Part shown: piece after piece, positions 1,564 through 24,078 of the stretch
Layout of the letters: the number at the start of each line of letters is the position of its first letter
Position numbering within the stretch: position 1 is the first letter of the stretch
Assembly: GCA_020848155.1 (NCBI GenBank)
Contig: JADLAR010000007.1
Location: 32,826 to 96,825, forward strand
Length of the DNA: 64,000 nt
Source: Candidatus Sumerlaeota bacterium
Lineage (GTDB): Bacteria; Sumerlaeota; Sumerlaeia; SLMS01
Reading direction: 5' to 3'
The notes under the pieces: model-generated
What the model was told of the DNA's origin: nothing
Database searches by the model: none
What the model saw: the letters and a program-made list of their open reading frames with translations, nothing else
Program-made: the position numbers and the translations under genes

Positions 1564-3222
1564 CTACCTTCTCATGCGCGCAAGGATTGATTGGGCGGCG
1601 ATGCGGCCGGTTTCGGCGGCGCCGTTCATGAAGCCTTGGAAGTCCATGCTACAATGTTCGCCAGCGAAGTAGACGTTGCCGACGGTTTGCGCTTCGGTGC
1701 CGCGGATGGTCGTCCACTGGCCGGGGCGGTAGGCGGCGTAGCTTCCCTTCATGGTGGGGTAGGTGGGCCAGTGGAAGCGCTCGACCCTGCCATTGTAGGA
1801 CTGCTGCACGCCGTTGAATGTGAGATCGAGTTCGGACAGGTATTTCTGGGCGAGGACGTTGAGGTCCGTCTTGCCAATGGCGAGGGCGTTTTTTCCACCG
1901 GAGTAGCAGGTGAGGCCGCCGGCGATGCTGCCCTGGCCCCGGCCGTTGTCCCAGGCAAGCTGGTAGCTTTGGCTTGTATAGACACTGCCTGAATAGCCCT
2001 GCTTGCGCCAGGGGCGGTCAATGAAGCCGAGGAAGACCTTGCTGTTCATGCCATAGCCGAGTTCGGCGATTGCGCGCTTCTTGATGGAAGGCATGTCGTC
2101 GATGAGGACTTCGACCTCGCGGAGCTTGGTGAAGGGGAGCGCGAGGATGACGACTTCCGCGGCGACCATTTTCGCGGTGCCGTTTTGTGTGCGGAAGACG
2201 AGTGAGTAGCCGTCGGCCTTGCTGCGGATGGATTCGAGGGTCTGGCTCGTGCTGATCTGGCCGCCAAGGGCACCCGCAAGGGCACTGATGATCTGGTCGT
2301 TGCCCCCCTTGATCTTGTAGCGCTCGTCGCTCTCGCCGAAGATTTCGAAGTCGTCCAGGCTGGAATCGGTGCCGATCATTGTGAGCAGGTTGAGGGCGGA
2401 TTGCTCCGTTGCATCGAGGCCAAATTCCGTGACGTAGGCCGTTTCGAGCAGCTTGCGCAGCCAGCCGGTGACGCCGAGTTTTCCGAGATAGGTGGAGAGG
2501 GACAGGTTGTCGATCCTCTTCGCTTCGCCGGGGTCGGCGGCGCTGATGACTTCGGGAAGGAGGCCGCGATCCAGCTCCAGCAGCGAGGCGATGGGGCGGA
2601 AAGCCTCGACGACTTCCGATGTGGAGTAGGTCAGGCCATCGACTTCGTACATCGTGGCGAAAATCTTCTCGTCGTCGGATTGCATGTCGAGGAGTTGGAG
2701 GTTGAATTCGCCGACGAGTGCGAGCAGGTCCTCGTGGTTGCTATCAATGAATTCACCGCCCATCTCGGTCGTCAGGTCCGGGGAAAGAAGCCCGGTGCGC
2801 GAATAGATGCGGCCTCCTGTGCGCGTGGAGGCATCGAACACCTGGGCGATGATGCCATTCTTCTTGAGCGTGTGGGCGGCGGCAAGGCCTGCGAGGCCGG
2901 CGCCGACGATGGCGATGCGAGGGGCACCGGAGAGTGCGGAGTCGATGGTCGCGATGTTGGATTTTTTTGCGAAGCAGCCGGACAGGGTGCCGGTCCCGGT
3001 GGCAAGAGTTGCGATGGCACCGGCCTTTAACAGGTCACGCCGGGTGGGGCGCCACTGCTGGCGCTGCCCGATGAGCTCGGGGGTGGAGACTCCGCGATGG
3101 TTTGCGAGTTGCGCCATTCGGCAGGCGCGGCGCAGTGCGCGAAAAAGCGGGGTGCGAGACATGGAGTGCCGACTTTCAAACGATGATGCCGCAAGGGTCT
3201 TTGACTGGCGGGAGCGCTGCAA
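1564..3222 (-). CDS. Periplasmic FAD-dependent amine oxidase (flavin-containing monoamine-oxidase family) with a Tat signal peptide
   Basis: There is a twin-arginine motif (RRDLLKAGAIATLATG). A Rossmann dinucleotide-binding motif (IAIVGAGLAGLAAAHTLKKNG) follows it. The C-terminal motif FAGEHCSMDFQGFMNGAAETG is typical of amine oxidases. The true start may be an internal Met (M21 or M36). Confidence 0.75.
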   Translation of the reverse strand: MQRSRQSKTLAASSFESRHSMSRTPLFRALRRACRMAQLANHRGVSTPELIGQRQQWRPTRRDLLKAGAIATLATGTGTLSGCFAKKSNIATIDSALSGAPRIAIVGAGLAGLAAAHTLKKNGIIAQVFDASTRTGGRIYSRTGLLSPDLTTEMGGEFIDSNHEDLLALVGEFNLQLLDMQSDDEKIFATMYEVDGLTYSTSEVVEAFRPIASLLELDRGLLPEVISAADPGEAKRIDNLSLSTYLGKLGVTGWLRKLLETAYVTEFGLDATEQSALNLLTMIGTDSSLDDFEIFGESDERYKIKGGNDQIISALAGALGGQISTSQTLESIRSKADGYSLVFRTQNGTAKMVAAEVVILALPFTKLREVEVLIDDMPSIKKRAIAELGYGMNSKVFLGFIDRPWRKQGYSGSVYTSQSYQLAWDNGRGQGSIAGGLTCYSGGKNALAIGKTDLNVLAQKYLSELDLTFNGVQQSYNGRVERFHWPTYPTMKGSYAAYRPGQWTTIRGTEAQTVGNVYFAGEHCSMDFQGFMNGAAETGRIAAQSILARMRR

Positions 3223-4460: not shown

Positions 4461-5204
4461 TCAGGAAGGCGTTTGCCCAACAACGATGCAGCGCGGGCTG
4501 TGGTGAATGGAAAAGGGGTTTGCGGAGTAATCCCCCCAGCGTTGCACAATGCTCATTCCCTGAGCTACAAGGAGCTGTTCAAGCTCCTGACAGGAGTAGA
4601 GGCGAACGCTTTCATGGTAGGTGGTGCCGGAGGGTTCCTCGACCTGTTTTTCGGCGCGCCTGCCGTCGGGGGTGAGGTGGCGGTGAATCCTTGCGACGGT
4701 TCCGTTGGGGCGAGCTTCGGTCTGCCATTCCGTATTGCATGCAAGTTTCTTCCCGACCAGGTGGGCGTTGAGGAAGTCGAGGAGGAACCAGCCGCCGGGT
4801 TGAAGGATGCGTGCGACCTCGGCAACGACGCGGCTGTTTTCCTCGTCGCTTTCGAAGTAGCCGAAGGCGGTGAAGAAATTCGTGACGAGTTGAAAGGAGG
4901 AGGGGGCAAAGGGGAGTGCGCGCATGTCGAGGCGAACGATGCGTGAGTTTGGAGCGGATGCCTCGCGCAGGAGGGGGAGGGAGAGGTCGCCGCCGATGAT
5001 GTTGAGACCCAGTTGGGCGAGAAAAGGGAGGTGACGGCCTGCACCGCAGCAGAGGTCGAAGGCGGGTGCGCCGGGGGTGAGGGGGAGGTTGCAAAGAAGC
5101 CGGACGCTGCGGGCGGCCTCGGCCTCGTCACGATGGGCGTATCGGTCGAGGTAGGCCGCGTCGAAGGCGTGTTCGTACCATTTTTTCTTTGCGGAGTGGG
5201 GCAA
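4461..5204 (-). CDS. Class I SAM-dependent methyltransferase
   Basis: The C-terminal 245 residues of the 698-aa ORF carry motif I (DLCCGAGRHLPFLAQLGLNIIGGDLS) and the post-I acidic (RLDMRALPF) and LQPGGWFLLDF motifs. The N-terminal 450 aa of that ORF is a P/S/T-rich out-of-frame overlap with the neighbouring gene. The proposed start is the TTG at 5204 (MPHSAKKKWYEHAF...). Confidence 0.7.
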   Translation of the reverse strand: MPHSAKKKWYEHAFDAAYLDRYAHRDEAEAARSVRLLCNLPLTPGAPAFDLCCGAGRHLPFLAQLGLNIIGGDLSLPLLREASAPNSRIVRLDMRALPFAPSSFQLVTNFFTAFGYFESDEENSRVVAEVARILQPGGWFLLDFLNAHLVGKKLACNTEWQTEARPNGTVARIHRHLTPDGRRAEKQVEEPSGTTYHESVRLYSCQELEQLLVAQGMSIVQRWGDYSANPFSIHHSPRCIVVGQTPS

Positions 5205-5226
5205 GGTGTTGGACCGGGCGGCGTGC

Positions 5227-6657
5227 TCAGGAATGGGTGCCTGGAGGGCGGCGTTTCCGGGAATGATGGACGCGTTGCGTGCGCGCAAGCAATCGGCGTT
5301 CGCGCCTTGCAAGATCGTTGAGGGCTGAGGACAGGACCTTCGATGGGTCCAGGCCGCGGAGGGATGCAAGGTCGGCTTCGAGTTCGACCTGCCTGCGGCA
5401 TTGGGAAACGAGGGCGAGGGCGGCGGCGGGGTCCCTGCGGATGTGTTCCTCGTATTTTGCTGTTTCGATCCAGGCGGGAAGGGACTGGGCGATGGGGCGG
5501 GTGCGCAGGTGGTGGAGGATTTCGAGGGCTTGGGGCCAGGCGCGGCGGCGCTTGTGCAGTGCGGCAAGCCTTGCAAGGAGTTCCGGTTCGCGATCGCGGT
5601 CGTTGTTGATTTCGAGCGCGCGTGTGATGGCGAGGGCTGCGCTGTCGAGGTCGTGGGATTTTGCGAAGCGGCGGGCGGCGGAGGCGAATTCTTCCGGATG
5701 ATTGAGGAGTCCGTGGCCGAAGGGGTTGTTCTCAATGAGGGTGAGGTGGCTGAGCAGCGCACCAAGGGTGATGATGTCCTGGGCGTTGTGGTCCAGCACG
5801 GCAGGCATGCGATCCGCGCGGCCTGTGCGGGCGAAGTGAAAGAAGACGCCGGGGATGAGCGCGCTGTCCAGGTCCGGTCCGCGATCAATGCCGAGGATCT
5901 GCTTTTCCACGGTCTTGAGTGACACGGATTCGAGCATCCTGCGCCACCAGCGGCGTGAGGAGTGGAGCAGGTCGATGTGCTTGAGGCGGAAATGCGCGGG
6001 GGGGATGCGGTGGAGAATGCCGCGGGCGCGGAGGAGTGGGAGGTCGAAGGTCTTGCCGTTGTAGGTGCATACTGCGCGGAACCGGGAGAGCCGCGTGACG
6101 AGGCGTTCGAGCATGTCGCCTTCGTGGCAGAAATCCTCGATGAGGTATTGCTCAAGGCGGAAGTGCCAGCCGCCCGTTGCCGTGTCATGCTCCCAGTTTC
6201 CAAGGCCGACGAGGAAGGGGACGGTGCCGGTGCCGCCCATGAGGCCGGTGGTTTCCGTGTCGAGAAAACAGATGTCGGTGGTGGTGAGTGGCTGGACGTC
6301 GGCGGTGATTTCGGTGCTGAGTGCGTGCAGGACGGGAGCGGCGATGGGATGCGTGGTGGCGCCGGTGACGGGGTGGGGGAGGGAATACTTGTGGTCGGTG
6401 GCTTCGCCGCGGGGGATGGTGATGGAGCGGAAAAGTGTCTGGCCGTGCTCACCGCGAATGACGCGCAGGTCGGGGATTTCGTCCAGCAGGTGCTGTTGCC
6501 TGGGTGGTTCGAGTTCCTTCCGGCGAAAGAATTCGGAGCCGTTGACAATGCCGTCATACTTGCCGGAGCGCAGGTCGTCGATGATCCTGTTTCGAGTTGC
6601 CTTGCGCTGATCGAGGGCCTTGAGGCGCTGCTGTAGGGAGGTGGGGGGAAGGCTCAT
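5227..6657 (-). CDS. YprB-like predicted exonuclease of the RNase H fold (COG3359) with a C-terminal helical/TPR-like extension
   Basis: It carries an ICFLDTETTGL motif (the metal-binding Asp/Glu of RNase-H-like 3'-5' exonucleases) and ...VCTYNGKTFDLPLL... The start was chosen at internal Met 28 (MSLPPTSLQQRLKAL) at 6657, because the ORF-track start at 6738 adds a P/S-rich leader. Confidence 0.6.
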   Translation of the reverse strand: MSLPPTSLQQRLKALDQRKATRNRIIDDLRSGKYDGIVNGSEFFRRKELEPPRQQHLLDEIPDLRVIRGEHGQTLFRSITIPRGEATDHKYSLPHPVTGATTHPIAAPVLHALSTEITADVQPLTTTDICFLDTETTGLMGGTGTVPFLVGLGNWEHDTATGGWHFRLEQYLIEDFCHEGDMLERLVTRLSRFRAVCTYNGKTFDLPLLRARGILHRIPPAHFRLKHIDLLHSSRRWWRRMLESVSLKTVEKQILGIDRGPDLDSALIPGVFFHFARTGRADRMPAVLDHNAQDIITLGALLSHLTLIENNPFGHGLLNHPEEFASAARRFAKSHDLDSAALAITRALEINNDRDREPELLARLAALHKRRRAWPQALEILHHLRTRPIAQSLPAWIETAKYEEHIRRDPAAALALVSQCRRQVELEADLASLRGLDPSKVLSSALNDLARRERRLLARTQRVHHSRKRRPPGTHS

Positions 6658-7521: not shown

Positions 7522-8514
7522 CTACAATTCCCTGCTGATGGTGCGGAGGATGCGCAGGCCCGTGGCGTTTGCCTGAAGGGCCAGGGGGGAGGAAAGGGAT
7601 GCGGGCAGGTAGAAGGTGTCGCCGAGGCCGAGTGGTTCGCTCCAGCGGGCGCCGCGAAGTTTTCCGCAGCCACCGACGACGTTGATGATGGCTCCCGTTT
7701 CGTGTGCGAGGGGAAGGTGTGCGTCCTGGCTGGCGGCGACGTCGTGGCGGGTGATGGAGAAAAATTCGTTCTCAAATGTTGAGGAGGAATTGCCGGAGCC
7801 GATGCCGCCGAATTTTTCAACGGAGGCGCGCACGTCGCGGTCCCAGTCGGTGACGTGCATGGATTCCTCGATGTGCAGGGCGCGCGCGGGCCTGCGGTCC
7901 CAATCGTAGAGGCGGAAGGTCGTGTTGGAGGATTGCTGGATTTCGCAGACAAGGGTGCCTGCCATCATGGCGTGGACGGTGCCGGGTGGGAGGGGGATGA
8001 AGTCGCCGGCTTCGAGGCGCCATTCCTGAAGGATGTCGCGGAGGTTGTTCCGGGCGATGGCGTGGCGCGCGGCTGCTTCCGTGGTGCCGGGTCGATATCC
8101 GGCAATGATGGTGGCCTGCGGATCAGCGTGCATGACGTACCAGGATTCGCTCTTGCCGCGGTCTTCATGATTGTGGGCGCGACACCAATCGTCGCCGGGA
8201 TGAACCTGGATGGAAAGGTCGTCGGCGGCGTCGATGTATTTGACACGGAGGGGGTAGCGGGCTGGGGCGTGCTCGCGGCCGATCATCTCGCGGGGGTGGG
8301 AGCGGAGGACTTCGCCGAAGGTCCTTCCATTGAGGTCGCGATCTGCGGAGATGATGCGCGAGGGGCCGTCGGGATGATCGGACAGCTCCCACGATTCGCC
8401 AAAGGGTTGCGGGGAGGGGGGGAGGTTCTTGTGCAGGACTGTTTGCAGCTTCGTCCCGCCCCAGGGTCGGGGTGACAGGTGGGGCTGGAGGCGGATGGGT
8501 GTTTGAAAATTCAT
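7522..8514 (-). CDS. manA: Mannose-6-phosphate isomerase, class I
   Basis: The type I PMI signature includes ...YPLRVKYIDAADDLSIQVHPGDDWCRAHNHEDRGKSESWYVMHA... (zinc-ligand QVHP/E region) and the cupin C-terminal domain. Confidence 0.8.
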   Translation of the reverse strand: MNFQTPIRLQPHLSPRPWGGTKLQTVLHKNLPPSPQPFGESWELSDHPDGPSRIISADRDLNGRTFGEVLRSHPREMIGREHAPARYPLRVKYIDAADDLSIQVHPGDDWCRAHNHEDRGKSESWYVMHADPQATIIAGYRPGTTEAAARHAIARNNLRDILQEWRLEAGDFIPLPPGTVHAMMAGTLVCEIQQSSNTTFRLYDWDRRPARALHIEESMHVTDWDRDVRASVEKFGGIGSGNSSSTFENEFFSITRHDVAASQDAHLPLAHETGAIINVVGGCGKLRGARWSEPLGLGDTFYLPASLSSPLALQANATGLRILRTISREL

Positions 8515-8688
8515 GGGGTGAAGCGGTTAGTCGGTGATGGGTGAGCGGTGATAGGGAAAAACGGGAGACTTGGGGTGGATTCGTGAATGAGGGCTGACAA
8601 GAGGGAGTGGCGGGGCCTTGCGGCGAAAACCACCCAGGTATTTTAGGCGGTGAGGTGAGGTCTTACCGTGAAGGAATAGGGCCGGCGA

Positions 8689-8715
8689 TGCCATATATGG
8701 CACTTTGATATATCA
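8689..8715. promoter_or_regulatory. Two adjacent perfect 12-bp palindromes, GCCATATATGGC (8689-8700) and TTGATATATCAA (8704-8715), in an AT-rich leader
   Basis: Both are visible directly in the sequence. They sit in the about 500-bp AT-rich intergenic region between divergent manA (start 8514) and actA (start 9027). Confidence 0.45.
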
Positions 8716-8930
8716 AAAAGTGCTATTAGGGCACAATCTTTGGTTTTTTTTCTAGAGGAAGAGCTAATAATGTGCAGCATTTCGAGTATTTGTTTAGCCT
8801 CTCCATCGGTTTGTCTGGTTGTCTCTGGGAACGCTGCGCGAAGGAGTTGAACCAAGGGTCTGGGACAGTTTGTTGTTACTGAGTTTACCGCATTGGAGCG
8901 GTAGGCGCTTAAGAGGTCGGGTTTGCAGAT

Positions 8931-8946
8931 TGTGAAATTTTTCACA
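8931..8946. promoter_or_regulatory. CRP/FNR-family consensus site TGTGA-N6-TCACA
   Basis: The 16-mer TGTGAAATTTTTCACA is an exact match to both half-sites of the E. coli CRP consensus. It lies 81 bp upstream of the actA start codon. Confidence 0.55.
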
Positions 8947-9026
8947 AAGGCTGTTGCCAGATTCGACAGCAATGTTCCAAGGTTCGTTCGCGCTCACATC
9001 ATGGATCGTCTGGCAGCAAGCATCGA

Positions 9027-9797
9027 ATGATTCGTCAGTACTGGAGAGTTTTTGCCCTCACCTTCGCCATTATGGCGGTGGGTGCCTATCAGCTATACGG
9101 CGTGTTTTCGAACAAAGGCTACGAGCCGGTTCAGCCGATCAATTACAGCCACGTGCTGCATGCGGGCGTGATGCAGATGGAGTGCCTGTATTGCCACAGT
9201 CAGGCAGAGAAGGGACCCAGCGCGGGCATTCCCGGCCTTGACGTGTGCATGGGTTGCCACGCGGTGGTTCGCACCGACAGTCCGGAAATCCAGAAGATGG
9301 CAAAGTACTATGCGGAGGGGAAGCCGGTTCCGTGGGTTCGGATCCATAGGATTCCTGATCACGCATTCTTCAACCATCGCTGGCACGTGGAGGCGGGTGT
9401 TGCCTGCCAGACCTGCCACGGTCCCGTACAGAACATGCCGGTGGTTCACCAGTGGACGAAGTTGGAGATGGGCAAGTGCGTGGAGTGTCATCGTCAGGGG
9501 CAGTACGCGGGGCAGATCGATCACCCGCCGACGTTCCATGAGCCGGAAGTGACTGCCGCGGAAGTGGCAAGCGCGCCGGAGGGGTTGACGCTGGCAGGTG
9601 CGGAGGAGAACCCGCAGTGGGCGAGCGCGGCGGCCGAGTTCAAGAAGTATCATGACAGCAGCGCGATGTCACCGGACGACACGAAGGTGATGCTGACGCG
9701 GCTGAAGCAATACCAGGAAGACATTTATCAACACGGCCGGCAGTACCAGACGCGCGGCAAGAATGCCTCTGTTGAATGCAGCACGTGCCACTACTGA
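9027..9797 (+). CDS. actA: Alternative Complex III subunit ActA (membrane-anchored pentaheme cytochrome c)
   Basis: It has an N-terminal TM helix and five CxxCH motifs (CLYCH, CMGCH, CQTCH, CVECH, CSTCH). It sits as the first gene of an actABCDEF array. Confidence 0.8.
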   Translation: MIRQYWRVFALTFAIMAVGAYQLYGVFSNKGYEPVQPINYSHVLHAGVMQMECLYCHSQAEKGPSAGIPGLDVCMGCHAVVRTDSPEIQKMAKYYAEGKPVPWVRIHRIPDHAFFNHRWHVEAGVACQTCHGPVQNMPVVHQWTKLEMGKCVECHRQGQYAGQIDHPPTFHEPEVTAAEVASAPEGLTLAGAEENPQWASAAAEFKKYHDSSAMSPDDTKVMLTRLKQYQEDIYQHGRQYQTRGKNASVECSTCHY

Positions 9798-9813
9798 GAG
9801 ATGATGCAACGCG

Positions 9814-12800
9814 ATGACCGCCCATAACCACAGCCACGACCACCGCCATGACGATGCGCCGCAGGGTGCCGCGATGGCCACGCCGCCGCTGTATTGGTCC
9901 ACACTTTCGCAGTTGGACCAGGATGCGGAGTATGTTGCGCAGGTAGGTGAGGAGTTCTACGCGGATGCGAAGCCGGAGCGCTTCTTCGAGGCCGATGGGG
10001 ACGAGGAAAAATTCATGTCCCCGTTCAGCCGGAGGACGTTCCTGAAGTTCAGCGCGTTCTCGGCGCTGGTGGCGGCGGTGAGTGGCTGCGAGCGCCCGGT
10101 GCAGAAGATCGTCCCCTATGTGGCGAAGCCGGAGGAGATCAACTACGGCGAGGCGAACTACTACGCGTCGACGTGCCAGGAGTGCTCCGCGGCGTGCGGG
10201 TTGATGGTGAAGACGCGCGAGGGGCGCCCGATCAAGCTGGAGGGCAATCCGGACCATCCCGTGAATCGTGGCTCGTTGTGCGCGAAGGGCCAGGCGGGGG
10301 TGTTGAACCTGTACAACCCGGACCGCCTGAAATATCCTGTTCGTCCGCAGCGCAAGGGGAACCAGATCGAGTTGTCCGCGAATGGCTACGCGAAGATGGC
10401 GGAGCTTGACTTGGAAATCGGCAAGGCGATGGCGGGGACGAAGGGGAAGGTTGTGCTGCTGACGCCGACCATCACCGGCCCGGCGAATGAACGGTTGATC
10501 AAGGATTTCCTGAGCACGACGACGAACGCGCAGCATGTGATGTATGACGCGCTGGAGACGGGCGAGGAGCGTGAGCTTTACAATGCGGTGTTCACGAAGC
10601 CCGTGACGCCGCGCTACCGCTTCCAGAATGCGAACGTGGTGGTGAACATCGGCGGCGATCCGCTGGGGCAGAATGTTTCGCAGTCGGAGATCCAGAAGGA
10701 TTGGGCGGCGAAGCGAAACCCGGCGATTGAGTCGGGAATGTCGCGTGTCTATACATTTGAGCCGGTTCCGACGCTGACGGGGATGAATTCCGATTATCGG
10801 CACGTGGTCCGGCCGGCGGACTTGTTCCGTGCCGGGCTGGTGATTGCCGGGCTGGTGTACCGGCAGTTGAATGGTTCGTCGTCGGCGAATGGCGTCGTGA
10901 AGAGCACGGAGACGGCGAAGCTGCTCGGTGCGGTGGACACGGAGGGGCTGGCGAAGGAGACGGGTGTTGCGCTGAAGGAGTATGAGCGGGTTGCGAAGTC
11001 GCTGGTGGAGAACCCGACGCGCAGCATCGTCTATACAAAGGGCGCTGCGGCGGACACGGCGGATGCGAGGAACCTGCACCTGCTAGGCATTCTGCTGAAC
11101 GCGATGCTGGGGAACTACCAGAACACGATCGATGTGCTGGTTTCCACGTCGCGGCAGTCGCTGGGAAGCACGGCGAACATCCAGAAGCTGATCGCGGAGA
11201 TGAAGGCGGGCGCGGTGGAAGTGTTGGTCTTCCACAACGTGAACCCGGCGTACACGCTGCCGGTGGGCGCGGGCTTCGCGGAGGCCGTGAAGAAGGTGAA
11301 GCTGGTTGTCTCGTTGAACCTGATGATGGATGAGACGGCAGCGCTGGCGGACATCGCGATTCCCGCGGTGCATGGCCTGGAGAGCTGGGGCGATGCGGAG
11401 GCGCAGACGGGCGCGCTCAGCATGCAGCAGCCCGTGATCAATCCGATTTTTGGCGAGACGAGCGCGGACACGCGCTTTGCGACGCGCGCGTGGCAGGAGT
11501 CGCTGATTGCCTTCATCGTGGCGTCGGGCAGTCCCGTGTTCCGCCGGGTGCCGTCGAAGGAAGACATTGCGCGGTTGATGGAGGAGCAGGCGACGACGGA
11601 CACGTTGAAGCTGGATCCGAAGTCGCTGCAGCCGTACACGATCACCTGGTACAATTACATCCGCGAGACCTGGCGTGACGGGGTCTACGCGAAGACGCCG
11701 TTCGCGTCGCCGACGTTCGATGCGTTCTGGACGTCGCTGGTGCAGAGCGGTGTGCTGGACACGGTGGGTGCGGCCGCGCGGAACGGGGCGCTTGGGGCGC
11801 CGAACATCAATCCCGCGCTGATGGGAATGATTGGCCAGCCTGCACAGACGGAAGGGCTGACGTTTGTGGCGCAGCCGTCGCAGGTGCACGGTGACGGGAA
11901 GTCTATGGTGAATCCGTTCCTGCTGGAATTGCCGGATTCAGTGAGCAAGGTTTGCTGGGACAACTACGCGAGCATCGCGCCGTCACTGGCGAAGGAACTG
12001 GGCGTGGAGGATGGCGATTATGTGAACGTGACGGTGAATGGCGCGACGGCGAAGGTGCCTGCGTACATCCAGCCGGGCACGCACAGGGACGTGGTGAGTG
12101 TTGGGCTTGGGTGGGGACGAAAGCTTGATGGTGCCGTGGGTGACGGTGTTGGCGTGGATGTGTTCCCCTTGGTGCAGGCGACGGAGACGTCCCTGATCAC
12201 GTCGGGATTGCCGGCGAAGATTGTGAAGGCGGGGGGCAGCACGCGCCTGGCGAACATCCAGGGGCACAACTACCTCTTCTCGCCGTCGTATTTGGGCATG
12301 ATGGTGAACAAGCGGGTTGGGGATGTGCCGGAGGGCGCGACGAAGAACGAGCAGGGCACGGCCGTGTGGGAGCGTCCGGTCATTGGTGAAACGACGTTGC
12401 AGGAGTGGAAGGAGAATCCGGCCAAGGGATATCCGAACCACGACGAGTTGAACCACGAGATTCCCTCGATCTGGCTGCACAAGCACAAGTATGAGGGGCA
12501 TCACTGGGGCATGGTGGTGGACCTGAACGCGTGCAATGGCTGCAATGCGTGCATGGTGGCGTGCTCCGTGGAGAACAACGTGCCCGTGGTTGGGAAGGCG
12601 GAGGTGCTGAAGGGGCGCGAAATGTTCTGGATTCGCATCGACCGCTACTATCGTGGTGATCGCGAGAATCCTGACTTCGTGCAGATGCCGCTGATGTGCC
12701 AGCACTGCGGCAATGCGCCGTGCGAGACGGTGTGCCCGGTGATTGCGACGATGCACAATGATGAGGGGTTGAACGTGATGACGTACAACCGGTGCGTGGG

Positions 12801-13347
12801 CACGCGCTATTGCGCGAACAACTGCCCGTACAAGGTGCGGCGCTTCAACTTCTTCCAGTACAGTGATTTCCGGACGGGGCGGCAGAACAACGTGAAGCGG
12901 GTGTCGCCGCTGGAGTTGGTGCTGAACCCGGATGTGTCAACGCGCACGCGTGGCGTGATGGAGAAGTGCAGCTTCTGCGTTCATCGCATTCGCGCTGCGA
13001 AGGACAGGGCGCGGGAGGCGGCGCTGCCGCTGAAGGATGGGGACATGGTGACGGCCTGCCAGCAGACCTGTCCGGCGAAGGCGATTCACTTCGGCGATAG
13101 GAATGATCCGGATTCGGTTGTGTCGAAGATGTGGAATGATCCGCGAAACTATGGCCTGCTGGCGGATTTGAATACCGATCCATCGGTGCGCTACATGGCG
13201 TTGGTTCGCAATCGCGATGAGGCGTCGCCCTATCGCACGATGTACCAGGCTCATCGCGTGGATCACCACGGGGCGGGCCACGAAGGTGGTGGCGGGCACG
13301 AAAAAACGGAAGGCGAGGCGCCGGCAGCACACGCGCCCGCGCACTGA
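9814..13347 (+). CDS. actB: Alternative Complex III subunit ActB (fused molybdopterin-oxidoreductase-like B1 and 4Fe-4S ferredoxin-like B2), Tat-exported
   Basis: A Tat motif ([20 protein letters not shown]) is present. The CISM-family N-terminal Cys cluster ([14 protein letters not shown]...CAKGQAG) and C-terminal FeS clusters ([44 protein letters not shown]) are also present. At 1177 aa it is typical for a fused ActB. Confidence 0.85.
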
Positions 13348-13370
13348 GCGGGGATGGACCAGGTGAAGCG

Positions 13371-14827
<1,457 letters not shown>

Positions 14828-14828
<1 letters not shown>

Positions 14829-15418
14829 TGGCGCGAATTTCTGTTCCCGCAGTGCTTGGCTTCTACGACGACGCGCATGATCTGTTGGATGTGACGGAGC
14901 GGGCGCGTGTGGATGAGAAGTTTGCGAACCTTGACGCATACACTCCGTATCCGGTTCACGGGTTGGAGGATGCGCTGGGGTTGAAGCGCTCCTGGGTGAG
15001 TACCGCGGCGCGTTTCGCGCTGCTGGGGGGGTGGTTCCTTGGATTCCTGTTCCAGTCGTGGACTTCGGCGATTGACTGGCCGGTGAACATTGGCGGGAAG
15101 CCGTTCATTGCCTGGCCGGCGTGGATTCCGGTGACATTCGAGTTTGGGGTGCTGATGGCGTCTTTTACAAACCTGCTGTGCATGTTCTATGCGTGCGGGC
15201 TTTATCCGCGCCCGAAGACGGTGGTGCTGAGCAAGCGCATCACGAATGATCGCATGGTTCTGGTGATTCCCGTGAAGGGTGATGAAGAGGAGCGGCGTGC
15301 GGTGGAGTTCCTGGGCGCCAACCATGCGTTGAAGATCAAGATCATTGACGGGTTTGATGCCCAGAGGCAGCGGTTGATTTTCCGTGCCACGCCGATGACG
15401 GGGGAGGTGACGCGATGA
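14828..15418 (+). CDS. actD: Alternative Complex III subunit ActD (DUF3341 family)
   Basis: It is a 196-aa protein with two TM helices. Its start overlaps the actC stop (ATGA), and it occupies the conserved position in the act operon. Confidence 0.7.
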
Positions 15419-16161
15419 GTCGCTTCCCGGTGTTCCAGGGGCGGTGTGCGCTGTCCCGTGTTGTGAGGGCATTCACGCTGATGGCGGTCGTGGTTGGCCT
15501 TTCCTCCTGCAAGCCGAACACGGAGCAGCGGGAAATCGAGTGGATGCCGGACATGTATCGCAACCAGGCGGTGAAGCCGCAGGAGGAAAGTGATTTCTTC
15601 AAGACGGGATCGGGAATGCTGATGCCGCCGAAGGACACGGTTCCGGTGGGTTTCACGCGCTATCCCTATCGTATCACGGAGGGTGTGAAGGCGGGGGATG
15701 AGCTTGTGAATCCGCTGCCGCGAACACGTGAGGTGCTGGAGATCGGACGGAAGTATTTCGATATCCATTGCATCGTGTGTCACGGGCCTGTGGGAAGTGG
15801 TGATGGGCTTGCGACACTGGCGAAGCGGGAGAACGGGATGCCGGTGCCGCCGCAGCTTTATTCAGAGAAGATCCGCACGACGTGGAAGGATGGCCAGATT
15901 TACCACACGATCACGATGGGCCAGGGGCAGATGCCGCCCTATGCGTCGCGCATCGAGCCAATTCACCGCTGGGCGATTGTGCATTATGTGCGCGCGCTGG
16001 GTGAGGCGGCGGCGCCGACGGAGGCGGACCTGAAGCTGGCGGAGTCGAAGGGCCTGAAGGCGAAGGACGAGGATGCGAAGTTGAGCACGTTGAAGCCGGA
16101 AGGGCGTCGCGAGTTTGAGTCTGTGTTCACGCTGAAGAAGTTTAACAAGGAAGAGAAGTAA
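15415..16161 (+). CDS. actE: Alternative Complex III subunit ActE (monoheme cytochrome c lipoprotein)
   Basis: It has a single CxxCH (CIVCHGP). The lipobox-like signal is VVGLSSCKP. Its start overlaps the actD stop. Confidence 0.75.
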   Translation: MSRFPVFQGRCALSRVVRAFTLMAVVVGLSSCKPNTEQREIEWMPDMYRNQAVKPQEESDFFKTGSGMLMPPKDTVPVGFTRYPYRITEGVKAGDELVNPLPRTREVLEIGRKYFDIHCIVCHGPVGSGDGLATLAKRENGMPVPPQLYSEKIRTTWKDGQIYHTITMGQGQMPPYASRIEPIHRWAIVHYVRALGEAAAPTEADLKLAESKGLKAKDEDAKLSTLKPEGRREFESVFTLKKFNKEEK

Positions 16162-16167
16162 GCCGTC

Positions 16168-17376
16168 ATGCACGGACATCGTTTCGAACGAATCGAAGAA
16201 AACTCGCCGCTGCGGATGTCGCCGCTGGTTTCGATCCTCATGATCGTGGCGGCTGTGGTGGGGTTGGGCGCATTCGCGTACGGGGCCTTCATGGGTCCTG
16301 CGGAGGATCGGGCGCGGGCCTGGACGGGCATGCTGGTGGCTGGGACGTTTTTCTGGTTCCTGTCGATGGGCGGCGGGTCGTTCCTGGCAATCAATTACAT
16401 CGTTGGAGCGAAGTGGTTCGTGGCAGTGAAGCGGCTGCCGGAGTCGCTGGCGCAGTTCTCCTACCGTGGCGGCTTCCTGTTTGCGCTGCTTCCCCTGCTT
16501 GGGATAGGCTCGTTGTACGCTTGGGCGCATCCCGGGTCCGATTACCCCTACGAGGGGACGTTGAAGCGTGTCTGGCTTTCGCCGGGCGTGCACTATGCGA
16601 AGGTGATCGTCTATGTGGCGATCCTGACGGTGACGACGTTTGTCCTGGTGTCGAAGTCGCGGGCGGCGTCGCGCAGTGCCGATGATCCGGCGTATCGTGG
16701 GCGCTACCGTTTCTCCATCGCGTACATCATTGTGTTTGGCCTGGCTTTTTCCTTCTTCTCCTGGGACGTGCTGATGTCGCTGGAGGCGAAGTGGTTCTCC
16801 ACGATGTTTGGCGTCTACTGCTTCATCGGCGCGTTCAACAGCGCGATGGCGCTGATGATGATGATGATGTTCTACCTGCGTGCGCAGAGCAAGTACGTCC
16901 AGGATCGCCACCTGCATGACATGGGGACGTACGTGATGGCGTTCGCGACGTTCATGATCTACATTGGATTCTCGCAGTTCATGCTGGTCTGGTACGCGAA
17001 CCTTTACGAGGAGACGTTCTACTTCCTGAACCGTTATCGCGGCGGGTGGTATGTGTTGACGATCCTGCTGCCGATCCTGAAGTGGATCGTGCCGTTCCTG
17101 ATCCTGATGCCGCCGTCGTTCCGCACGAACCTGAGCGCGCAGACGGTGGCCTGTGTCTCCATCCTTGTGGGGCAGGCAATGGACATCTATTGGATCGTGC
17201 AGCCGGCGTTGTCGCCAGAGGCGATCCTTCCGTCGGTGATCAATGTGCTGACCTTCGTGGGGGTGGGTGGTGTGTTCGGCTACACGGTGATCAACGACCT
17301 GGCGTCGCATTCGAAGCTGCCGGCGGAGGATCCGGACCTGATGTCGAGCGTGAACGGGGACTACCTCCATGCATAG
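16168..17376 (+). CDS. actF: Alternative Complex III subunit ActF (NrfD-like membrane subunit)
   Basis: It is a second NrfD-family polytopic membrane protein. It is paralogous in architecture to ActC and occupies the conserved position. Confidence 0.75.
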   Translation: MHGHRFERIEENSPLRMSPLVSILMIVAAVVGLGAFAYGAFMGPAEDRARAWTGMLVAGTFFWFLSMGGGSFLAINYIVGAKWFVAVKRLPESLAQFSYRGGFLFALLPLLGIGSLYAWAHPGSDYPYEGTLKRVWLSPGVHYAKVIVYVAILTVTTFVLVSKSRAASRSADDPAYRGRYRFSIAYIIVFGLAFSFFSWDVLMSLEAKWFSTMFGVYCFIGAFNSAMALMMMMMFYLRAQSKYVQDRHLHDMGTYVMAFATFMIYIGFSQFMLVWYANLYEETFYFLNRYRGGWYVLTILLPILKWIVPFLILMPPSFRTNLSAQTVACVSILVGQAMDIYWIVQPALSPEAILPSVINVLTFVGVGGVFGYTVINDLASHSKLPAEDPDLMSSVNGDYLHA

Positions 17377-18337
17377 TCCGGTTCCCATTAAAAAAGAGCG
17401 GGCGAGCCTGGTTGCCTTCGTCGTGCTGGTGTTGCTGGCGGTGTACTTCCTCTATGCGTTGCTGAGCACGATGTACCATCATGGCGTGATGGAAGGTCGG
17501 CTGGAGAATACCTACGCCGTGCCGAAGAAGCCACAAACGGACGAGGCGGAGGTTTTCGACCAGCGCCAATTGATGAAGCCGAGCGATGAACTGATCAAGC
17601 TGGGCAAGACGCTGTTCACGAATAATTGCGTTTCCTGCCATGGCGAGGACGGCATGGGCGATGGACCGTCCGGAAAGAATCTGAACCCGCGGCCACGGAA
17701 TTACCACGCTCCCGACGCGGATTGGAAAATTGGCACGTCGGTGCTCAGCATGTACCACACGCTTGAGAAGGGCGTGAATGGAATGCCGAACTTTCCGGTG
17801 CTGAATCCGAAGCAGAAGTACGCCGTGATCCATTACGTTCATGCGACGTTCATGAAGGAGCGCGGCTATGCGGAGGACACGCAGGCGGCGATCGATGCGC
17901 TGCCGAAGCCGGGTGGCGCGGTGGCGATGAAGATTGATCCGTATGCCGAGACGCGCGTGCCGATCATTCAGGCAATCGAGAGTTATGTGGAGAAGGAGCA
18001 GGGCGGGGTGCCGGTTTCCAAGGCCCTGGATGACCTGCGTCCGGGCATGAAGATCACGGTGGGCCATGCGCTGTACGCAAGGCATTGCCAGAGTTGCCAC
18101 GGGCCAGGGGGCGGGGGGACCGTCCCGGCTCAGGTGAAGTCGCCGCTGCAATTGAATCAGTTGGCGTGGGGCGCATCCCGCTTGAACAAGGAGGGGGTGT
18201 GGGTGAATGATTATGACCGGTTCCGTTCGATCGTGTCGAAAGGGCAGCCAAACGGGGTGATGCCCGGCTTTGCGACCCTGACGGATGAGGAAACGCAGGC
18301 GTTGCACAAGTACATCAAGTCGTTGGTCAAGGAATAA
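17369..18337 (+). CDS. Membrane-anchored diheme cytochrome c, the probable electron carrier between ACIII and the oxidase
   Basis: It has an N-terminal TM helix and two CxxCH motifs (CVSCHGEDG and CQSCHGPGG). It overlaps the actF stop and precedes coxB. Confidence 0.7.
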   Translation: MHSPVPIKKERASLVAFVVLVLLAVYFLYALLSTMYHHGVMEGRLENTYAVPKKPQTDEAEVFDQRQLMKPSDELIKLGKTLFTNNCVSCHGEDGMGDGPSGKNLNPRPRNYHAPDADWKIGTSVLSMYHTLEKGVNGMPNFPVLNPKQKYAVIHYVHATFMKERGYAEDTQAAIDALPKPGGAVAMKIDPYAETRVPIIQAIESYVEKEQGGVPVSKALDDLRPGMKITVGHALYARHCQSCHGPGGGGTVPAQVKSPLQLNQLAWGASRLNKEGVWVNDYDRFRSIVSKGQPNGVMPGFATLTDEETQALHKYIKSLVKE

Positions 18338-18352
18338 GGCGGGCACGACCTC

Positions 18353-19345
18353 ATGGCGAAGAAAGACATCAAGATTATCGTCGGTTTGTGGGTGCTCGCG
18401 CTGATATTGTCGGCGCTGACGACGTGGGCGTACATGATTTCGTACAATCCGGCAACGGCGACCCACGGCCCAGCCAGTATCTCGGAACCGACGACGCATT
18501 GGCTTTTCCAGCCGGCCTCTTCGGTGGCGGAGAGGGTTCGCACAGAATCGGCGTGGATGGTGTTTATCATCATGCCGTTCCTGTATGGCCCATTCCTGAT
18601 GCTGTTCTATATCATTTCGCGGTTTTCCAAGAGCCGCCATCCGGTGGCTGACAAGCCCAATGAGAACCTGACGCTGGAGGTGGCGTGGACGATCGTTCCG
18701 GCGCTTGCGCTGATCGTGATGGCCGTGCCCGCCTATGAGGCGTTGCGCTACATGGAAATACCACCGGCGCGGCCCGATCAGGTGATCAATGTGACAGGGG
18801 CGCAGTTCTACTGGCAGTATGAACTGCCGCGTTATGGCCTGACGACGACGGACAATGGGACGATTACGATCGATGCCAAGACCGGGAGGGCCACGGAGGA
18901 GGATTCCTGGCTGCACCTGCCCATCAACAAGACGGTCCTGATGAATGGCCAGTCCTTCCAGGTGAACCATGCGTGGTGGGTGCCGGCCTTCGGCGTGAAA
19001 TTCGACGTGATCCCCGGCCGGATCAACACGGTGTGGTTTGATACGAAGAAGAAGGGATATTTCAAGGGGCAGTGTGCGGAGCTTTGTGGCACGCTGCACG
19101 CCTACATGCGTATTCAGGTGGTGGTCGAGGAGGAGAAGGACTTCTACGAGTGGGTGCTTCGCAAGGGGGGGACGATCCCCGAGGAGGAAGAGGCCCGTGT
19201 TGTGGAATTGCTTGGGGCGGATTACCGGGAGCGCTTCGCGCCAAAGGACGGCGCAAAGCCGGCTTCACTTCCTGCGGCGACGGAATCAGCGAAATCACCC
19301 GTGCCGGCAACGGCAGGAGCCACTGAAGCGACGGGTTCGAAATAA
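18353..19345 (+). CDS. coxB: Cytochrome c oxidase subunit II (CuA subunit) without a fused cytochrome c domain
   Basis: It has two N-terminal TM helices. The CuA ligand motif is ...HAWWVPAFGVKFDVIPGRINTVWF...GQCAELCGTLHAYM. There is no CxxCH in the C-terminal tail. Confidence 0.85.
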   Translation: MAKKDIKIIVGLWVLALILSALTTWAYMISYNPATATHGPASISEPTTHWLFQPASSVAERVRTESAWMVFIIMPFLYGPFLMLFYIISRFSKSRHPVADKPNENLTLEVAWTIVPALALIVMAVPAYEALRYMEIPPARPDQVINVTGAQFYWQYELPRYGLTTTDNGTITIDAKTGRATEEDSWLHLPINKTVLMNGQSFQVNHAWWVPAFGVKFDVIPGRINTVWFDTKKKGYFKGQCAELCGTLHAYMRIQVVVEEEKDFYEWVLRKGGTIPEEEEARVVELLGADYRERFAPKDGAKPASLPAATESAKSPVPATAGATEATGSK

Positions 19346-19392
19346 TTTGGTTTGAAGGGGGGTGCGGTTCCCCGGCATGATAGACCGCATAG

Positions 19393-21093
19393 ATGGAGCA
19401 GCAAACGATGAGCATCGCAACACCACCAAAAGAGCCGCAGGGCGGCGGAGTCATCGACCTCGACGTTTATACGCCGATCGAGGAGCCGCGGACAAAAACA
19501 ACGCAGCACAAGGGTATCCTTCGCTGGCTGACGACGGTCGATCACAAGATGATCGGCGTGATGTACTTATGGTTCGCCGGCTTCTCGGTGATATTTGGCG
19601 GGGCGCTGGCGGGATTGATCCGCACGCAGTTGGCCTTTCCCAACGGTATTGGTGGCAAGCCGCTGATGACGCCGGAGTACTTCAATCAGTTCATCGGCAT
19701 GCATGCGACGTTCATGATGTTCGGGTTCGTGATCCCGGCCTTTGCAGGGTTTGGCAATTACGTCATCCCGATCATGATAGGGGCGCGGGACATGGCGTTC
19801 CCGAAGATGAATGCCTTCGCGTTCTGGATTCTGGTGCCGTCGGGACTGTTGATGGCATCAAGTTTCTTTTTTGGGTCAATTCCCGGCGGATGGACGAGCT
19901 ACGCGCCGCTTTCGACGAAGACGTACGCGCCGAACTTGGGCGTGGACATGTGGATCTTTGCCATTCACCTGGCGGGCGTGAGTTCCATCCTGGGGGCGAT
20001 CAACTTCATCGTGACCATGAGCAACATGAGGGCTCCGGGGATGAAGTGGTTCCGCATGCCGCTGTTCTGCTGGGCGACGTTGGTGACATCCTGGTTGCAG
20101 TTGATTGGGACGCCGGTTCTGGCGGGCGTCGTGACGATGTTGCTGACGGATCGCATCCTCGACACAGGTTTCTTCAACCCGGCAAAGGGCGGTGATCCGT
20201 TGCTGTACCAGCACTTGTTCTGGTTCTACAGCCATCCCGCAGTCTACATCATGATGATCCCCGGCTTTGGCATGGTCTCGCAGGTCATTCAGACGTTCAG
20301 CGGGCGGCCGACCTTTGGGTACAAGGGAATGGTCTACGCGACGGCCTTCATCGGCGTTGTCGGTTTCCTGGTGTGGGGGCACCACATGTTCTCCGCGGGC
20401 ATGGAGCCCTGGCTACGTGCATATTTCGGTTTCATGACGATGCTGGTCGGGGTGCCGACGGGGGTGAAAATTTTCTCCTGGCTGGCCACGCTGTGGGGCG
20501 GGTCCATTCGCTTCACGACGTCGATGATGTTCGCCCTGGGGTTCCTTGGGCTGTTCACGATCGGTGGAATTTCCGGGGTTTTCCTGGCGAACGTGCCCTT
20601 CGACGTGCAGGTGCATGACACGTACTTCGTGGTCGCGCATATCCACTATGTGATGTTCGGCGGCGCGGTGATGACGATCTTTGCGGCGTTGTACTACTGG
20701 TTCCCGAAGATGTCGGGGCGCTACCTGAGCGAGCGCCTTGGCAAGGTCATCTTCTGGCTGATCTTCACGGGAATGAACGTGACGTTCCTGCCGATGCACT
20801 GGCTGGGAATTGCGGGCATGGCGCGGCGCATCTACACCTACCGGCCGGAGTTCCACTCACTGAACATGATCGTCAGTTCGGGTTACCTGCTAATGCTGAC
20901 AGGTGGGCTGCTTCTGGTGGGAAATGTCTTCTACACGCTTCTGGCGAAGCGTCGCACGGCACCGAATGACGCTTGGGGCGGCAATGAAGTGCAGAACACG
21001 CTGGAGTGGATGACGACGTCTCCTCCGCCCGCGCACAACTTCGACCGCGTGCCGAAGATCGTGCCGATGGCCTACGAATCCCTTCACCACTGA
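19393..21093 (+). CDS. ctaD: Cytochrome c oxidase subunit I (heme-copper oxidase catalytic subunit)
   Basis: It is a 566-aa protein with 12 TM helices. Canonical motifs present are ...GGGDPLLYQHLFWFYSHPAVYIMMIPGFGMVS... and HHMF. Confidence 0.9.
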   Translation: MEQQTMSIATPPKEPQGGGVIDLDVYTPIEEPRTKTTQHKGILRWLTTVDHKMIGVMYLWFAGFSVIFGGALAGLIRTQLAFPNGIGGKPLMTPEYFNQFIGMHATFMMFGFVIPAFAGFGNYVIPIMIGARDMAFPKMNAFAFWILVPSGLLMASSFFFGSIPGGWTSYAPLSTKTYAPNLGVDMWIFAIHLAGVSSILGAINFIVTMSNMRAPGMKWFRMPLFCWATLVTSWLQLIGTPVLAGVVTMLLTDRILDTGFFNPAKGGDPLLYQHLFWFYSHPAVYIMMIPGFGMVSQVIQTFSGRPTFGYKGMVYATAFIGVVGFLVWGHHMFSAGMEPWLRAYFGFMTMLVGVPTGVKIFSWLATLWGGSIRFTTSMMFALGFLGLFTIGGISGVFLANVPFDVQVHDTYFVVAHIHYVMFGGAVMTIFAALYYWFPKMSGRYLSERLGKVIFWLIFTGMNVTFLPMHWLGIAGMARRIYTYRPEFHSLNMIVSSGYLLMLTGGLLLVGNVFYTLLAKRRTAPNDAWGGNEVQNTLEWMTTSPPPAHNFDRVPKIVPMAYESLHH

Positions 21094-21188
21094 CCGCGTT
21101 GAAGCGATTCGCGCATCAATCGTCCTGACGCTGCCGGAAGCAAAGGCTCTCCGGCGCGGCACTTGAAGAAAGCAGACGCACCGTCGGA

Positions 21189-22310
21189 ATGAATCCATCG
21201 CTGAAACTGGTTCGCACCACCCTGATCATCGTGTTTGTGATGTGTCTGGGAATGGTGACGTTGGGCGGGTGGGTCCGCCTGAGCGGATCGGGCTTTTCGA
21301 TCCCGCAGTGGCCCCTGTTCACCGTCAGCGAGACGATCCTGCCGAACGGGGAGCTCGTCGAGGAAAAGTCCGTGTTGCCGCCAAGCAACGTGGAGGGCTG
21401 GGAAAGGCTGCGCGATATTTTCGTTCATCACGAGCCGACGCAGGCCGGGATTCACGTTGATGATTTCAAGAAGTTGTTCTGGGTGGAATGGAGCCATCGC
21501 GGGCTGGCCTCGTTGATCGGCCTGGCCTATTTGGTGCTGATGGTCGTGATATTTCGTTCGCCCGAGGCGCGCAAGTCGATCGGGCTGCTTTGCATTGCCG
21601 GTTTGTTGATGTTGTTTTCGCAGGTGTTGATCGGTGGCGTGGTTATTTTTCTGGGAGTCGCGGCCACAGCGGTGGCGTTCCACCTGATCGCGGCGTTCTT
21701 CTTCATCTCGATCGTGCTGTGGATGTTGCTGAAGGTGATGCATCCGCCACTGCCGGAGGAGAAGCGAACGCCGAATTCGATCGTGAAGTGGGCGGTCGTC
21801 ATCTACGCGCTGATCTGCGTCCAGATATTCTCAGGTGGGTTGATGGCGGCCAGCAAGGCGGGCTACCAGATGACGACGTGGCCGCGCATGGGTGATTACT
21901 GGGTGCCGCCGGGGTTGCAACAACGGGGCTTTTCGATTGTGCGGAATTTCACGGAGAACGTGATCATGATCCAGTTTTGGCACCGTTGGTATGCCATGGC
22001 GGTGGCGCTGGCGATCCTGTTGTTCGTGGCGCGCTGCATGACGGTGCGCGTGTCGAGGACGGGGCGATGGGCACTGCGCGCGTTGTTCGCCACGGTGATC
22101 CTTCAGGTGATCCTGGGGATCATCACGCTGCTGACGGGGGTGCATCCGCACATTGCGCTGACGCACCAGATGGTGGGGTTGTTTGTGATGCTGATTTCGC
22201 TGGTCACGATTTATGAGACGAGGAATCACGAGGTTGTGATGGAGATGGCGCTGGCGGAGGAGCAGGAGCGCATGGCCGCGGGCGGAAAGGTGGCCGAGCG
22301 TGCTGCGTAG
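21189..22310 (+). CDS. ctaA: Heme A synthase (CtaA/COX15)
   Basis: It is a polytopic membrane protein. The characteristic N-terminus is ...GGWVRLSGSGFSIPQWPL..., and His residues lie in the paired four-helix halves. Confidence 0.75.
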   Translation: MNPSLKLVRTTLIIVFVMCLGMVTLGGWVRLSGSGFSIPQWPLFTVSETILPNGELVEEKSVLPPSNVEGWERLRDIFVHHEPTQAGIHVDDFKKLFWVEWSHRGLASLIGLAYLVLMVVIFRSPEARKSIGLLCIAGLLMLFSQVLIGGVVIFLGVAATAVAFHLIAAFFFISIVLWMLLKVMHPPLPEEKRTPNSIVKWAVVIYALICVQIFSGGLMAASKAGYQMTTWPRMGDYWVPPGLQQRGFSIVRNFTENVIMIQFWHRWYAMAVALAILLFVARCMTVRVSRTGRWALRALFATVILQVILGIITLLTGVHPHIALTHQMVGLFVMLISLVTIYETRNHEVVMEMALAEEQERMAAGGKVAERAA

Positions 22311-23178
22311 CTACCTGTCACTGACGAAGCCAACGATTTGCCTGCTGGTGCTGATCACCGGCGCGGCGGCCCTGGTGTGGGAGGGTTCCTTCCTGAGGGA
22401 GCCGCTGCATTTCCTGATGGTGATGGTGGGGTTGTTCTCCACGGCGGGATGCGCAAATGCGCTGAACCAGTATCTGGAGCGTGACCGTGACGCGTTGATG
22501 AAGCGCACGGCGAAGCGGCGGCCGCTGCCGACGGGGCAGATCACGCCGCGCAGTGCGCTGGTGTTCGCGATCACGACGGGGGTGCTGGGCGTGGGAATTT
22601 TCGTGGCCTGGTTCAACCTGTTCAGTGCGCTCCTGGCGCTGGCAACGATCCTGTTCTATGCGTTTTTCTACACGTTGTACCTGAAGCCGCGCACGGCACA
22701 GAACATCGTGATTGGCGGGGCGGCGGGGGCGATGGGGCCAGTGATCGCCTGGGCTGCGGCGACGGACCTTTCCGGGATGACGTGGGTGCCGTGGGTGATG
22801 TTTGCGATCATCTTCTTCTGGACGCCGCCGCATTTCTGGGCGCTGGCGCTGTGCCTCCAGGATGACTACAAGGCGAATCCCCTCCCGATGATGCCGAACG
22901 TGGCGGGGGAGCAGAGCACGCTGCGCCAGATGCTTGTCTATACGATTGTGCTGGTTGGGATCAGCCTGTCGCTGGTGTGGGCGGATGCGGGGTTGGTCTA
23001 CATTGTGAGTGCGGTGATCTGCGGTGGGTTGTTCCTGTGGAAGTCGATCGTTTCCATGCAGGTGCGCGAGACGAAGCAGTATTGGGGGTTGTTCGGCTAT
23101 TCGATCGTCTACCTGTTCGCGCTGTTCGGTGCGATGATGGTGGACGTGATGTTGCATTTTCCGGTGCTGAAGGGATGA
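22300..23178 (+). CDS. ctaB: Protoheme IX farnesyltransferase (heme O synthase)
   Basis: It is a UbiA-family prenyltransferase. Its N-terminus reads YLSLTKPTICLLVLITGAAAL. It overlaps the ctaA stop. Confidence 0.85.
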   Translation: MLRSYLSLTKPTICLLVLITGAAALVWEGSFLREPLHFLMVMVGLFSTAGCANALNQYLERDRDALMKRTAKRRPLPTGQITPRSALVFAITTGVLGVGIFVAWFNLFSALLALATILFYAFFYTLYLKPRTAQNIVIGGAAGAMGPVIAWAAATDLSGMTWVPWVMFAIIFFWTPPHFWALALCLQDDYKANPLPMMPNVAGEQSTLRQMLVYTIVLVGISLSLVWADAGLVYIVSAVICGGLFLWKSIVSMQVRETKQYWGLFGYSIVYLFALFGAMMVDVMLHFPVLKG

Positions 23179-23230
23179 GTGGGGTGATGATGGATTCCTG
23201 CCAACCCAGCGCCACGGACCGGCGGGCACG

Positions 23231-24075: not shown

Positions 24076-24078
24076 CCG

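Follow-up and report, generated by a model that had tools for sequence, protein, structure and literature searches.

A predicted Rex-type operator upstream of the alternative complex III-oxidase operon in Sumerlaeota

What controls the genes for alternative complex III (ACIII) and the oxidase encoded with it in Sumerlaeota, a phylum in which, to our knowledge, nothing is known experimentally about gene regulation? The question is raised by an intergenic region (8515-9026) in a 64,000-nucleotide stretch of DNA from a Candidatus Sumerlaeota bacterium, the whole of which was analysed and is called the window here. By Pfam, the region separates a type I phosphomannose isomerase gene (7522-8514, minus strand) from actA (9027-9797, plus strand). 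The latter opens a presumed regulated unit (9027-24921, plus strand) comprising actABCDEF, a dihaem cytochrome c gene, coxII, coxI, ctaA, ctaB, ctaG, and coxIII, which lie on one strand throughout with short intergenic gaps. A preliminary description of the region had proposed that a redox- or cAMP-responsive activator of the Crp/Fnr family acts in front of this unit at a CRP-type palindrome, which it took to be the regulatory palindrome of the ACIII-oxidase operon. We find that the palindrome stands and that a redox-responsive regulator is the best reading; the assignment to the Crp/Fnr family and to class II activation is not supported, given a complete match to the consensus of Rex, a repressor.

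The palindrome upstream of actA and its conservation

The 16-mer TGTGAAATTTTTCACA at 8931-8946 is an exact TGTGA-N6-TCACA sequence, the last base of which lies 81 bp before the actA ATG (9027); re-reading confirmed both the sequence and the position that had been reported for it. The core is contained in an 18-mer, TTGTGAA ATTT TTCACAA (8930-8947), which we annotate as a predicted Rex-type operator (ROP) and which ends 79 nt before the ATG of actA, the start of the ACIII-cox operon. When compared with the Rex consensus TTGTGAANNNNTTCACAA of Streptomyces avermitilis (PMC5355995), which is also quoted as the generalised Rex consensus (PMC5317091), the 18-mer agrees at 14/14 specified positions with no mismatch, and its centre is all A/T. 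It is likewise an exact match, W4 centre included, to the Staphylococcus aureus Rex consensus TTGTGAAW4TTCACAA (PMC2883068). An exact TGTGA-N6-TCACA sequence is expected 0.07 times by chance per 64 kb and is observed once. At up to two mismatches the pattern occurs 20 times in the window against 21.9 expected, i.e., with no enrichment, and the other CRP- or Rex-pattern matches (1-3 mismatches) across the window are all intragenic and at chance frequency.

To follow the palindrome beyond the window, we compared ten distinct actA loci, the window included, with ActA proteins that are 53-100% identical (90% to 53% in the relatives). A scan of the genome collection contributed one locus only (L001), exact-protein look-ups contributed L002-L010, and a scan of metagenomes with ActA peptides found no relatives. 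The window, L001, L005, and L009 are named Sumerlaeota or Sumerlaeia, and all ten are treated as Sumerlaeota-type by ActA similarity. A Rex-type site precedes actA in nine of the ten loci, with no mismatch to the Rex consensus in the window, L001, L002, and L009, one in L003, L006, L008, and L010, and two in L005. The exact TGTGA-N6-TCACA core is likewise present in nine of the ten, centred 88-231 nt upstream of the actA ATG; L007, also Sumerlaeota-type, has no site before actA. No 6-mers other than TGTGAA and TCACAA occur in all nine of the 500-bp upstream regions, and a six-way alignment of upstream sequences gives ∼45% identity overall, yet tTGTGAA-N5-TCACAA is invariant. The divergent pairing of phosphomannose isomerase and actA is kept in six of the ten loci (the window, L001, L002, L003, L007, and L010), with spacers of ∼460-650 bp, and the site is retained with actA where other genes replace the isomerase neighbour (L005, L008, and L009). 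Because it is conserved in a diverged background and stays with actA, we consider the palindrome to be functional and to be part of the act-cox operon, as had been proposed. In L008 a DCC1-like gene call (2268-2843, minus strand) includes the operator (2761-2778) in its 5′ portion; its start has probably been placed too far upstream.

Rex and the Crp/Fnr family as candidate regulators

The TGTGA-N6-TCACA core is used by many Crp-family regulators, and for this reason sequence alone does not fully separate the two families. The E. coli CRP site has core pentamers and spacing identical to those of the window site, but differs from it in the flanks and the centre. In E. coli the CRP flank consensus is AAA-TGTGA ... 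TCACA-TTT, whereas the flanks in all nine loci read (G/A)TT-TGTGA and TCACA-A(A/G)C and do not follow it. What is conserved beyond the CRP core is the T before TGTGA, the A after TGTGA, the A after TCACA, and an A/T centre; these extra positions agree with the Rex consensus and run contrary to the flanks of E. coli CRP sites. Counting against Rex, operator position 12 carries A in place of T in five of the nine sites.

The genes that accompany the same sequence elsewhere point in the same direction. Metagenome contigs were scanned for the exact 18-mer TTGTGAAAAAAATCACAA, which is present in five Sumerlaeota loci, and at least 120 loci were recovered. An ORF was counted as adjacent if it starts within 350 bp of the motif, which gave 146 such ORFs among the matches listed. 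These comprise at least 39-40 NuoB, at least 6 NuoA, at least 5 NqrA, and at least 5 ActA-like cytochromes, together with at least 2 each of NuoJ, class V aminotransferases, and Rex (PF06971 plus PF02629). A tblastn search adds a third rex gene adjoining an 18-mer site, for at least three in total, and the protein that adjoins the 18-mer in L126 is annotated by NCBI as Rex from Fibrobacter sp. In the same metagenome loci, tblastn with E. coli CRP and FNR as queries returned no crp/fnr homologue among the matches listed. In these contigs the 18-mer lies directly before nuoB, nuoA, nqrA, actA, and rex genes. Some of the contigs that carry it are labelled as phyla other than Sumerlaeota, and the source names of the adjacent proteins include Fibrobacter (rex), Rhodopirellula or Rubripirellula (nqrA), and Pedosphaera (actA). 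We note that in L020, L022, L066, L068, and L110 the 18-mer stands before nqrA, with which the genes for the Na+-translocating NADH:quinone reductase begin, and that the nqrA protein cluster of those loci carries Rhodopirellula and Rubripirellula names (Planctomycetota).

Rex is known mainly from Gram-positive bacteria. In S. avermitilis, it represses nuoA1-N1, cydA1B1CD, atpI-C, rex-hemAC1DB, and ndh2, and its binding to DNA is lowered by NADH (PMC5355995). As Rex targets, the nuo, cyd, atp, and rex-hem operons have been verified by experiment (PMC5355995). The operators of nuoA-N, cydABCD, atpI, and rex-hemACD in S. coelicolor and S. avermitilis contain the same 18-bp inverted repeat as the window site and serve respiratory operons, with a logic of NADH-relieved repression that is predicted to hold here as well (PMC5355995). 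Unlike in Streptomyces, the predicted target belongs to an uncultured phylum of Gram-negative type and is an operon for ACIII, a caa3 oxidase, and haem A synthesis, and the centre of the site is A/T-rich rather than GC-rich. The S. aureus regulon mainly covers fermentation and anaerobic respiration genes, whereas the predicted target in the window is an aerobic chain. A closer precedent in kind is the rex-hydrogenase site of Caldithrix abyssi (Calditrichaeota), likewise a comparative-genomics prediction made with the same generalised consensus in a little-studied phylum; that site departs from the consensus at two positions and stands before rex itself, whereas the window site is exact and precedes ACIII (PMC5317091).

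A regulator of this kind is on record for the phylum. In a comparative study of 16 Sumerlaeota MAGs, the accessible part of the supplement gives two COG2344 clusters named "redox-sensing transcriptional repressor REX", with counts of 9 and 4, both marked as present in the common ancestor (P = 0.9996 and 0.64, respectively; PMC8092238). Among the Sumerlaeota table entries listed in that part, COG0664 has a single entry, a phosphatase, and the terms "Crp", "FNR", and "cAMP" are absent (PMC8092238). The same study describes nuo, act/pet, and cox/cyd genes in Sumerlaeota, and habitats with fluctuating oxygen (PMC8092238). Within the 64-kb window, phmmer with approximate sequences of B. subtilis and T. 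aquaticus Rex and Pfam assignments for 40 ORFs found no rex gene, which counts against Rex, and no rex was found in L001-L010; the corresponding search of the window with approximate E. coli CRP and FNR sequences, again with Pfam on 40 ORFs, found no Crp/Fnr protein.

Taken together, these observations make it unlikely that a Crp/Fnr-family activator, responding to cAMP, oxygen, or redox state, recruits RNA polymerase to a class I or class II promoter of the operon. Such a regulator would suit the exact TGTGA-N6-TCACA core, and it would suit the metagenome promoters considered below, in which the site sits upstream of the -35 element, a common position for an activator. Against it stand the conserved flanks, the three or more rex genes that adjoin the 18-mer where crp/fnr matches are missing from those listed, the window without a Crp/Fnr protein, the Sumerlaeota table entries listed (PMC8092238), and the identity of the targets, namely NADH dehydrogenases and the respiratory chain, which form the classic Rex regulon (PMC5355995). 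Because the conserved flanks and centre, the targets, and the adjacent rex genes all fit Rex, we prefer Rex over CRP. The palindrome carries the sequence features by which a Rex operator can be recognised and is predicted to work like one. We put the probability at about three in four that 8930-8947, within or beside the core promoter of the actA-coxIII unit, is a Rex operator at which Rex would repress when NADH/NAD+ is low and from which NADH would release it. With NADH scarce relative to NAD+, a Rex dimer would occupy TTGTGAA-N4-TTCACAA and hinder RNA polymerase. As NADH accumulates, Rex would bind it and leave the DNA, upon which the operon, with its genes for alternative complex III, the caa3-type oxidase, and haem A synthesis, would be transcribed, and its expression would provide more capacity for NADH reoxidation via the respiratory chain.

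Promoter geometry and the remainder of the leader

In eight of the nine loci a TTG stands 7-8 nt upstream of TGTGA, in the variants TTGCAG, TTGACT, TTGAGT, and TTGCCG, and the TTGCAG at 8923-8928 (plus strand) is a candidate -35 element. The sequence after TCACA in eight of the nine loci is AAGGCT, AACACT, AAGCCT, or AAACTT, always with A as the second base and T as the sixth, and AAGGCT at 8947-8952 (plus strand) is the candidate -10 element at a spacer of 18 nt. The proposed -10 lacks the first T. A scan of 8300-9300 for the sigma-70 consensus found no promoter, and for this reason the TTGCAG-18 nt-AAGGCT assignment is a weak one. If it is correct, the -35/-10 spacer would be occupied by the operator, as at the Streptomyces nuoA1, atpI, and rex promoters, and the operator would also overlap the -10. 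Of the four operators footprinted in S. avermitilis, those of rex, nuoA1, and atpI are located between the -35 and -10 elements, and that of cydA1 is found downstream of the transcription start (PMC5355995). From the sequence we infer that Rex binds here, that it represses, and that its operator fills the -35/-10 spacer, a probable position that the window site would then share with the Streptomyces sites.

A different geometry is seen in the metagenome contigs. There, CTTGCC or CTTGCA comes 4-7 nt after the 18-mer in at least 48 of its occurrences (e.g., L031 3421-3438, L094, L103, L017, L035, L078, and L092); ∼15-17 nt past this hexamer stands a -10-like element such as TAGGCT, TAGGAT, or TAGCTT, and then comes nuoB or actA. 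These occurrences are mostly in soil and peat contigs with a GC content of 0.53-0.63. The operator centre in such nuoB/actA promoters would be near -51, upstream of the -35, which is an unusual placement for a simple repressor. In L119 (∼4475-6040), nuoB and actA are divergent and ∼560 bp apart, and the cassette of operator plus promoter faces nuoB. The window itself has an alternative -35-like element, TTGCCA (8954-8959, plus strand), 6 nt downstream of the operator, in a geometry like that of the operator-N4-7-CTTGCC promoters in the metagenomes. The at least 48 occurrences with the site centre near -51, this TTGCCA, and the A/T tract at the centre of the site would all be accommodated if another, undescribed dimeric regulator were at work or if Rex acted in a non-canonical manner, by activation or by occluding an UP-element-like A-tract, upstream of a promoter that uses the downstream TTGCCA. 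We regard this as improbable. Beyond TTGCCA, neither the window nor L001 shows a -10 that is convincing or conserved, and none is conserved in Sumerlaeota; across Sumerlaeota the upstream TTG keeps its position and the downstream one does not; and the published action of Rex is repression (PMC5355995). Repression by Rex from within or next to the core promoter is the reading that we retain for the Sumerlaeota operon.

The leader contains two further palindromes, which had been taken to suggest a second regulator or xenogeneic silencing. The presence of two adjacent perfect 12-bp palindromes, GCCATATATGGC (8690-8701) and TTGATATATCAA (8705-8716), was confirmed, and the second extends to a 14-bp palindrome, TTTGATATATCAAA, at 8704-8717. 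To find two such perfect 12-bp palindromes within 512 bp is unusual, with P ∼0.005 when sequences of the same composition as the region are simulated; both are built on a self-complementary ATATAT core. The first is lost in L001, since the sequence there reads ACTATATATGGC. The second is identical in L001 in its 14-bp form, and L002 reads TTTGGCATACTAAA, which is not palindromic. The symmetry is thus not kept in relatives, a second regulator or silencing is not supported, and a chance origin for the symmetry of GCCATATATGGC and TTGATATATCAA is reasonable. Extended to every palindrome of the leader, so that all are functionless chance features of an AT-rich spacer, this explanation becomes very improbable: it is in keeping with the missing enrichment of the CRP-type pattern at up to two mismatches and with the lost symmetry of both ATATAT-core palindromes, but for 8930-8947 it is excluded by conservation in nine of ten loci against a diverged background, with the exact core expected only 0.07 times.

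Both AT-core palindromes are contained in a conserved 49-bp block (8693-8741) that is far above the surrounding spacer in identity, with 48/50 positions identical in L001 (96%) and 37/50 in L002 (74%); it is unrecognisable in the more distant loci. Its role may be that of a promoter, either distal or divergent. Several more specific assignments were tried and rejected. A sigma-54 promoter (TGGCAC-N5-TTGC), a Bacteroidetes-type promoter (TTTG...TAnnTTTG), and an IHF site each had the wrong spacing or were not conserved in L001 and L002. A small ORF of 26 codons starting at 8770 is not conserved in L001 and L002. An FNR site at TTGATATATCAA would have the spacing TTGAT-N2-ATCAA, in contrast to the E. 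coli FNR consensus TTGAT-N4-ATCAA, and is lost in L002. Two "terminators" called by a scan of 8300-9300 were traced to an AT-core palindrome and to a non-conserved hairpin of 4 bp. We also looked for an RNA element, as an sRNA had been considered possible. Rfam gave no match in the window, nor in 8400-9150 at a relaxed threshold, and the window contains no tRNAs. Folding was no better than that of shuffled sequences for 8740-9040 (z = -0.38) and for 8955-9040 (z = +1.33). With no sign of one from these results, an sRNA, a riboswitch, and a structured leader were all dropped.

The composition of the leader had been described as strikingly AT-rich. Its GC content is indeed lower than that of the whole window (0.50 for 8515-9026 versus 0.60) and falls to 0.42 at 8680-8830; "strikingly" is an overstatement, in that GC is equally low near 50.4-50.7 kb and 61.95 kb of the window. 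Because these two stretches match it, the AT-richness of the leader is real yet ordinary for a promoter region. At its downstream end, a nine-codon upstream ORF (MDRLAASIE, 9001-9030, plus strand) has a stop that overlaps the actA start codon (ATGA). L001 is the sole relative with an equivalent, MKRLAAMTE, before actA. In the window and L001, actA has no Shine-Dalgarno sequence; the distant loci carry a GAGGA-type ribosome-binding site before actA.

Two other parts of the window stand out in composition. A low-GC patch at ∼48500-55100 (0.47-0.56) contains a gene for a SocA/Panacea-domain antitoxin-like protein (48591-49223), a gene for a 234-aa protein with a C-terminal HU-type DNA-binding domain (51140-51844), and a tyrosine recombinase gene (53195-54118, minus strand), and it may be an integrated mobile element. 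At 45500-46500 the GC skew flips sharply (-0.36 versus ∼+0.15 elsewhere) at a GC content of 0.67; this stretch overlaps a plus-strand ORF of 395 aa (45278-46465) with no Pfam match.

Implications for respiratory control

Our literature search found no work linking Rex to alternative complex III beyond unrelated co-mentions, no reports on the control of alternative complex III operons, and no discussion of Rex for Sumerlaeota; a second paper on Sumerlaeota mentions neither Rex nor Crp. The finding extends a well-described regulator and is not a new mechanism. What it proposes is a concrete link between the cellular NADH/NAD+ balance and expression of the ACIII-caa3 branch, and reading the palindrome as a Rex box corrects a tempting mis-annotation as a CRP/FNR site.

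The most interesting lead is that contigs assigned by their labels to other phyla carry the site again before nuoB, nuoA, nqrA, and actA, in many cases immediately upstream of the -35. Contig labels and the window together point to Sumerlaeota, Verrucomicrobiota, Planctomycetota, and soil and peat bacteria. Only tentatively, and with considerable doubt, do we raise the broader idea that Rex is a master regulator of the whole aerobic chain (complex I, Nqr, and ACIII with caa3) across poorly studied Gram-negative lineages, acting in many promoters from an operator at ∼-51. If the operator does lie there, its action would be non-canonical, e.g., activation or the blocking of UP-element/alpha-CTD contacts. 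The pattern suggests that complex I, Nqr, and ACIII are under one and the same switch in several environmental lineages and, if this is true, such a shared switch would aid the reading of metatranscriptomes from habitats in which oxygen fluctuates.
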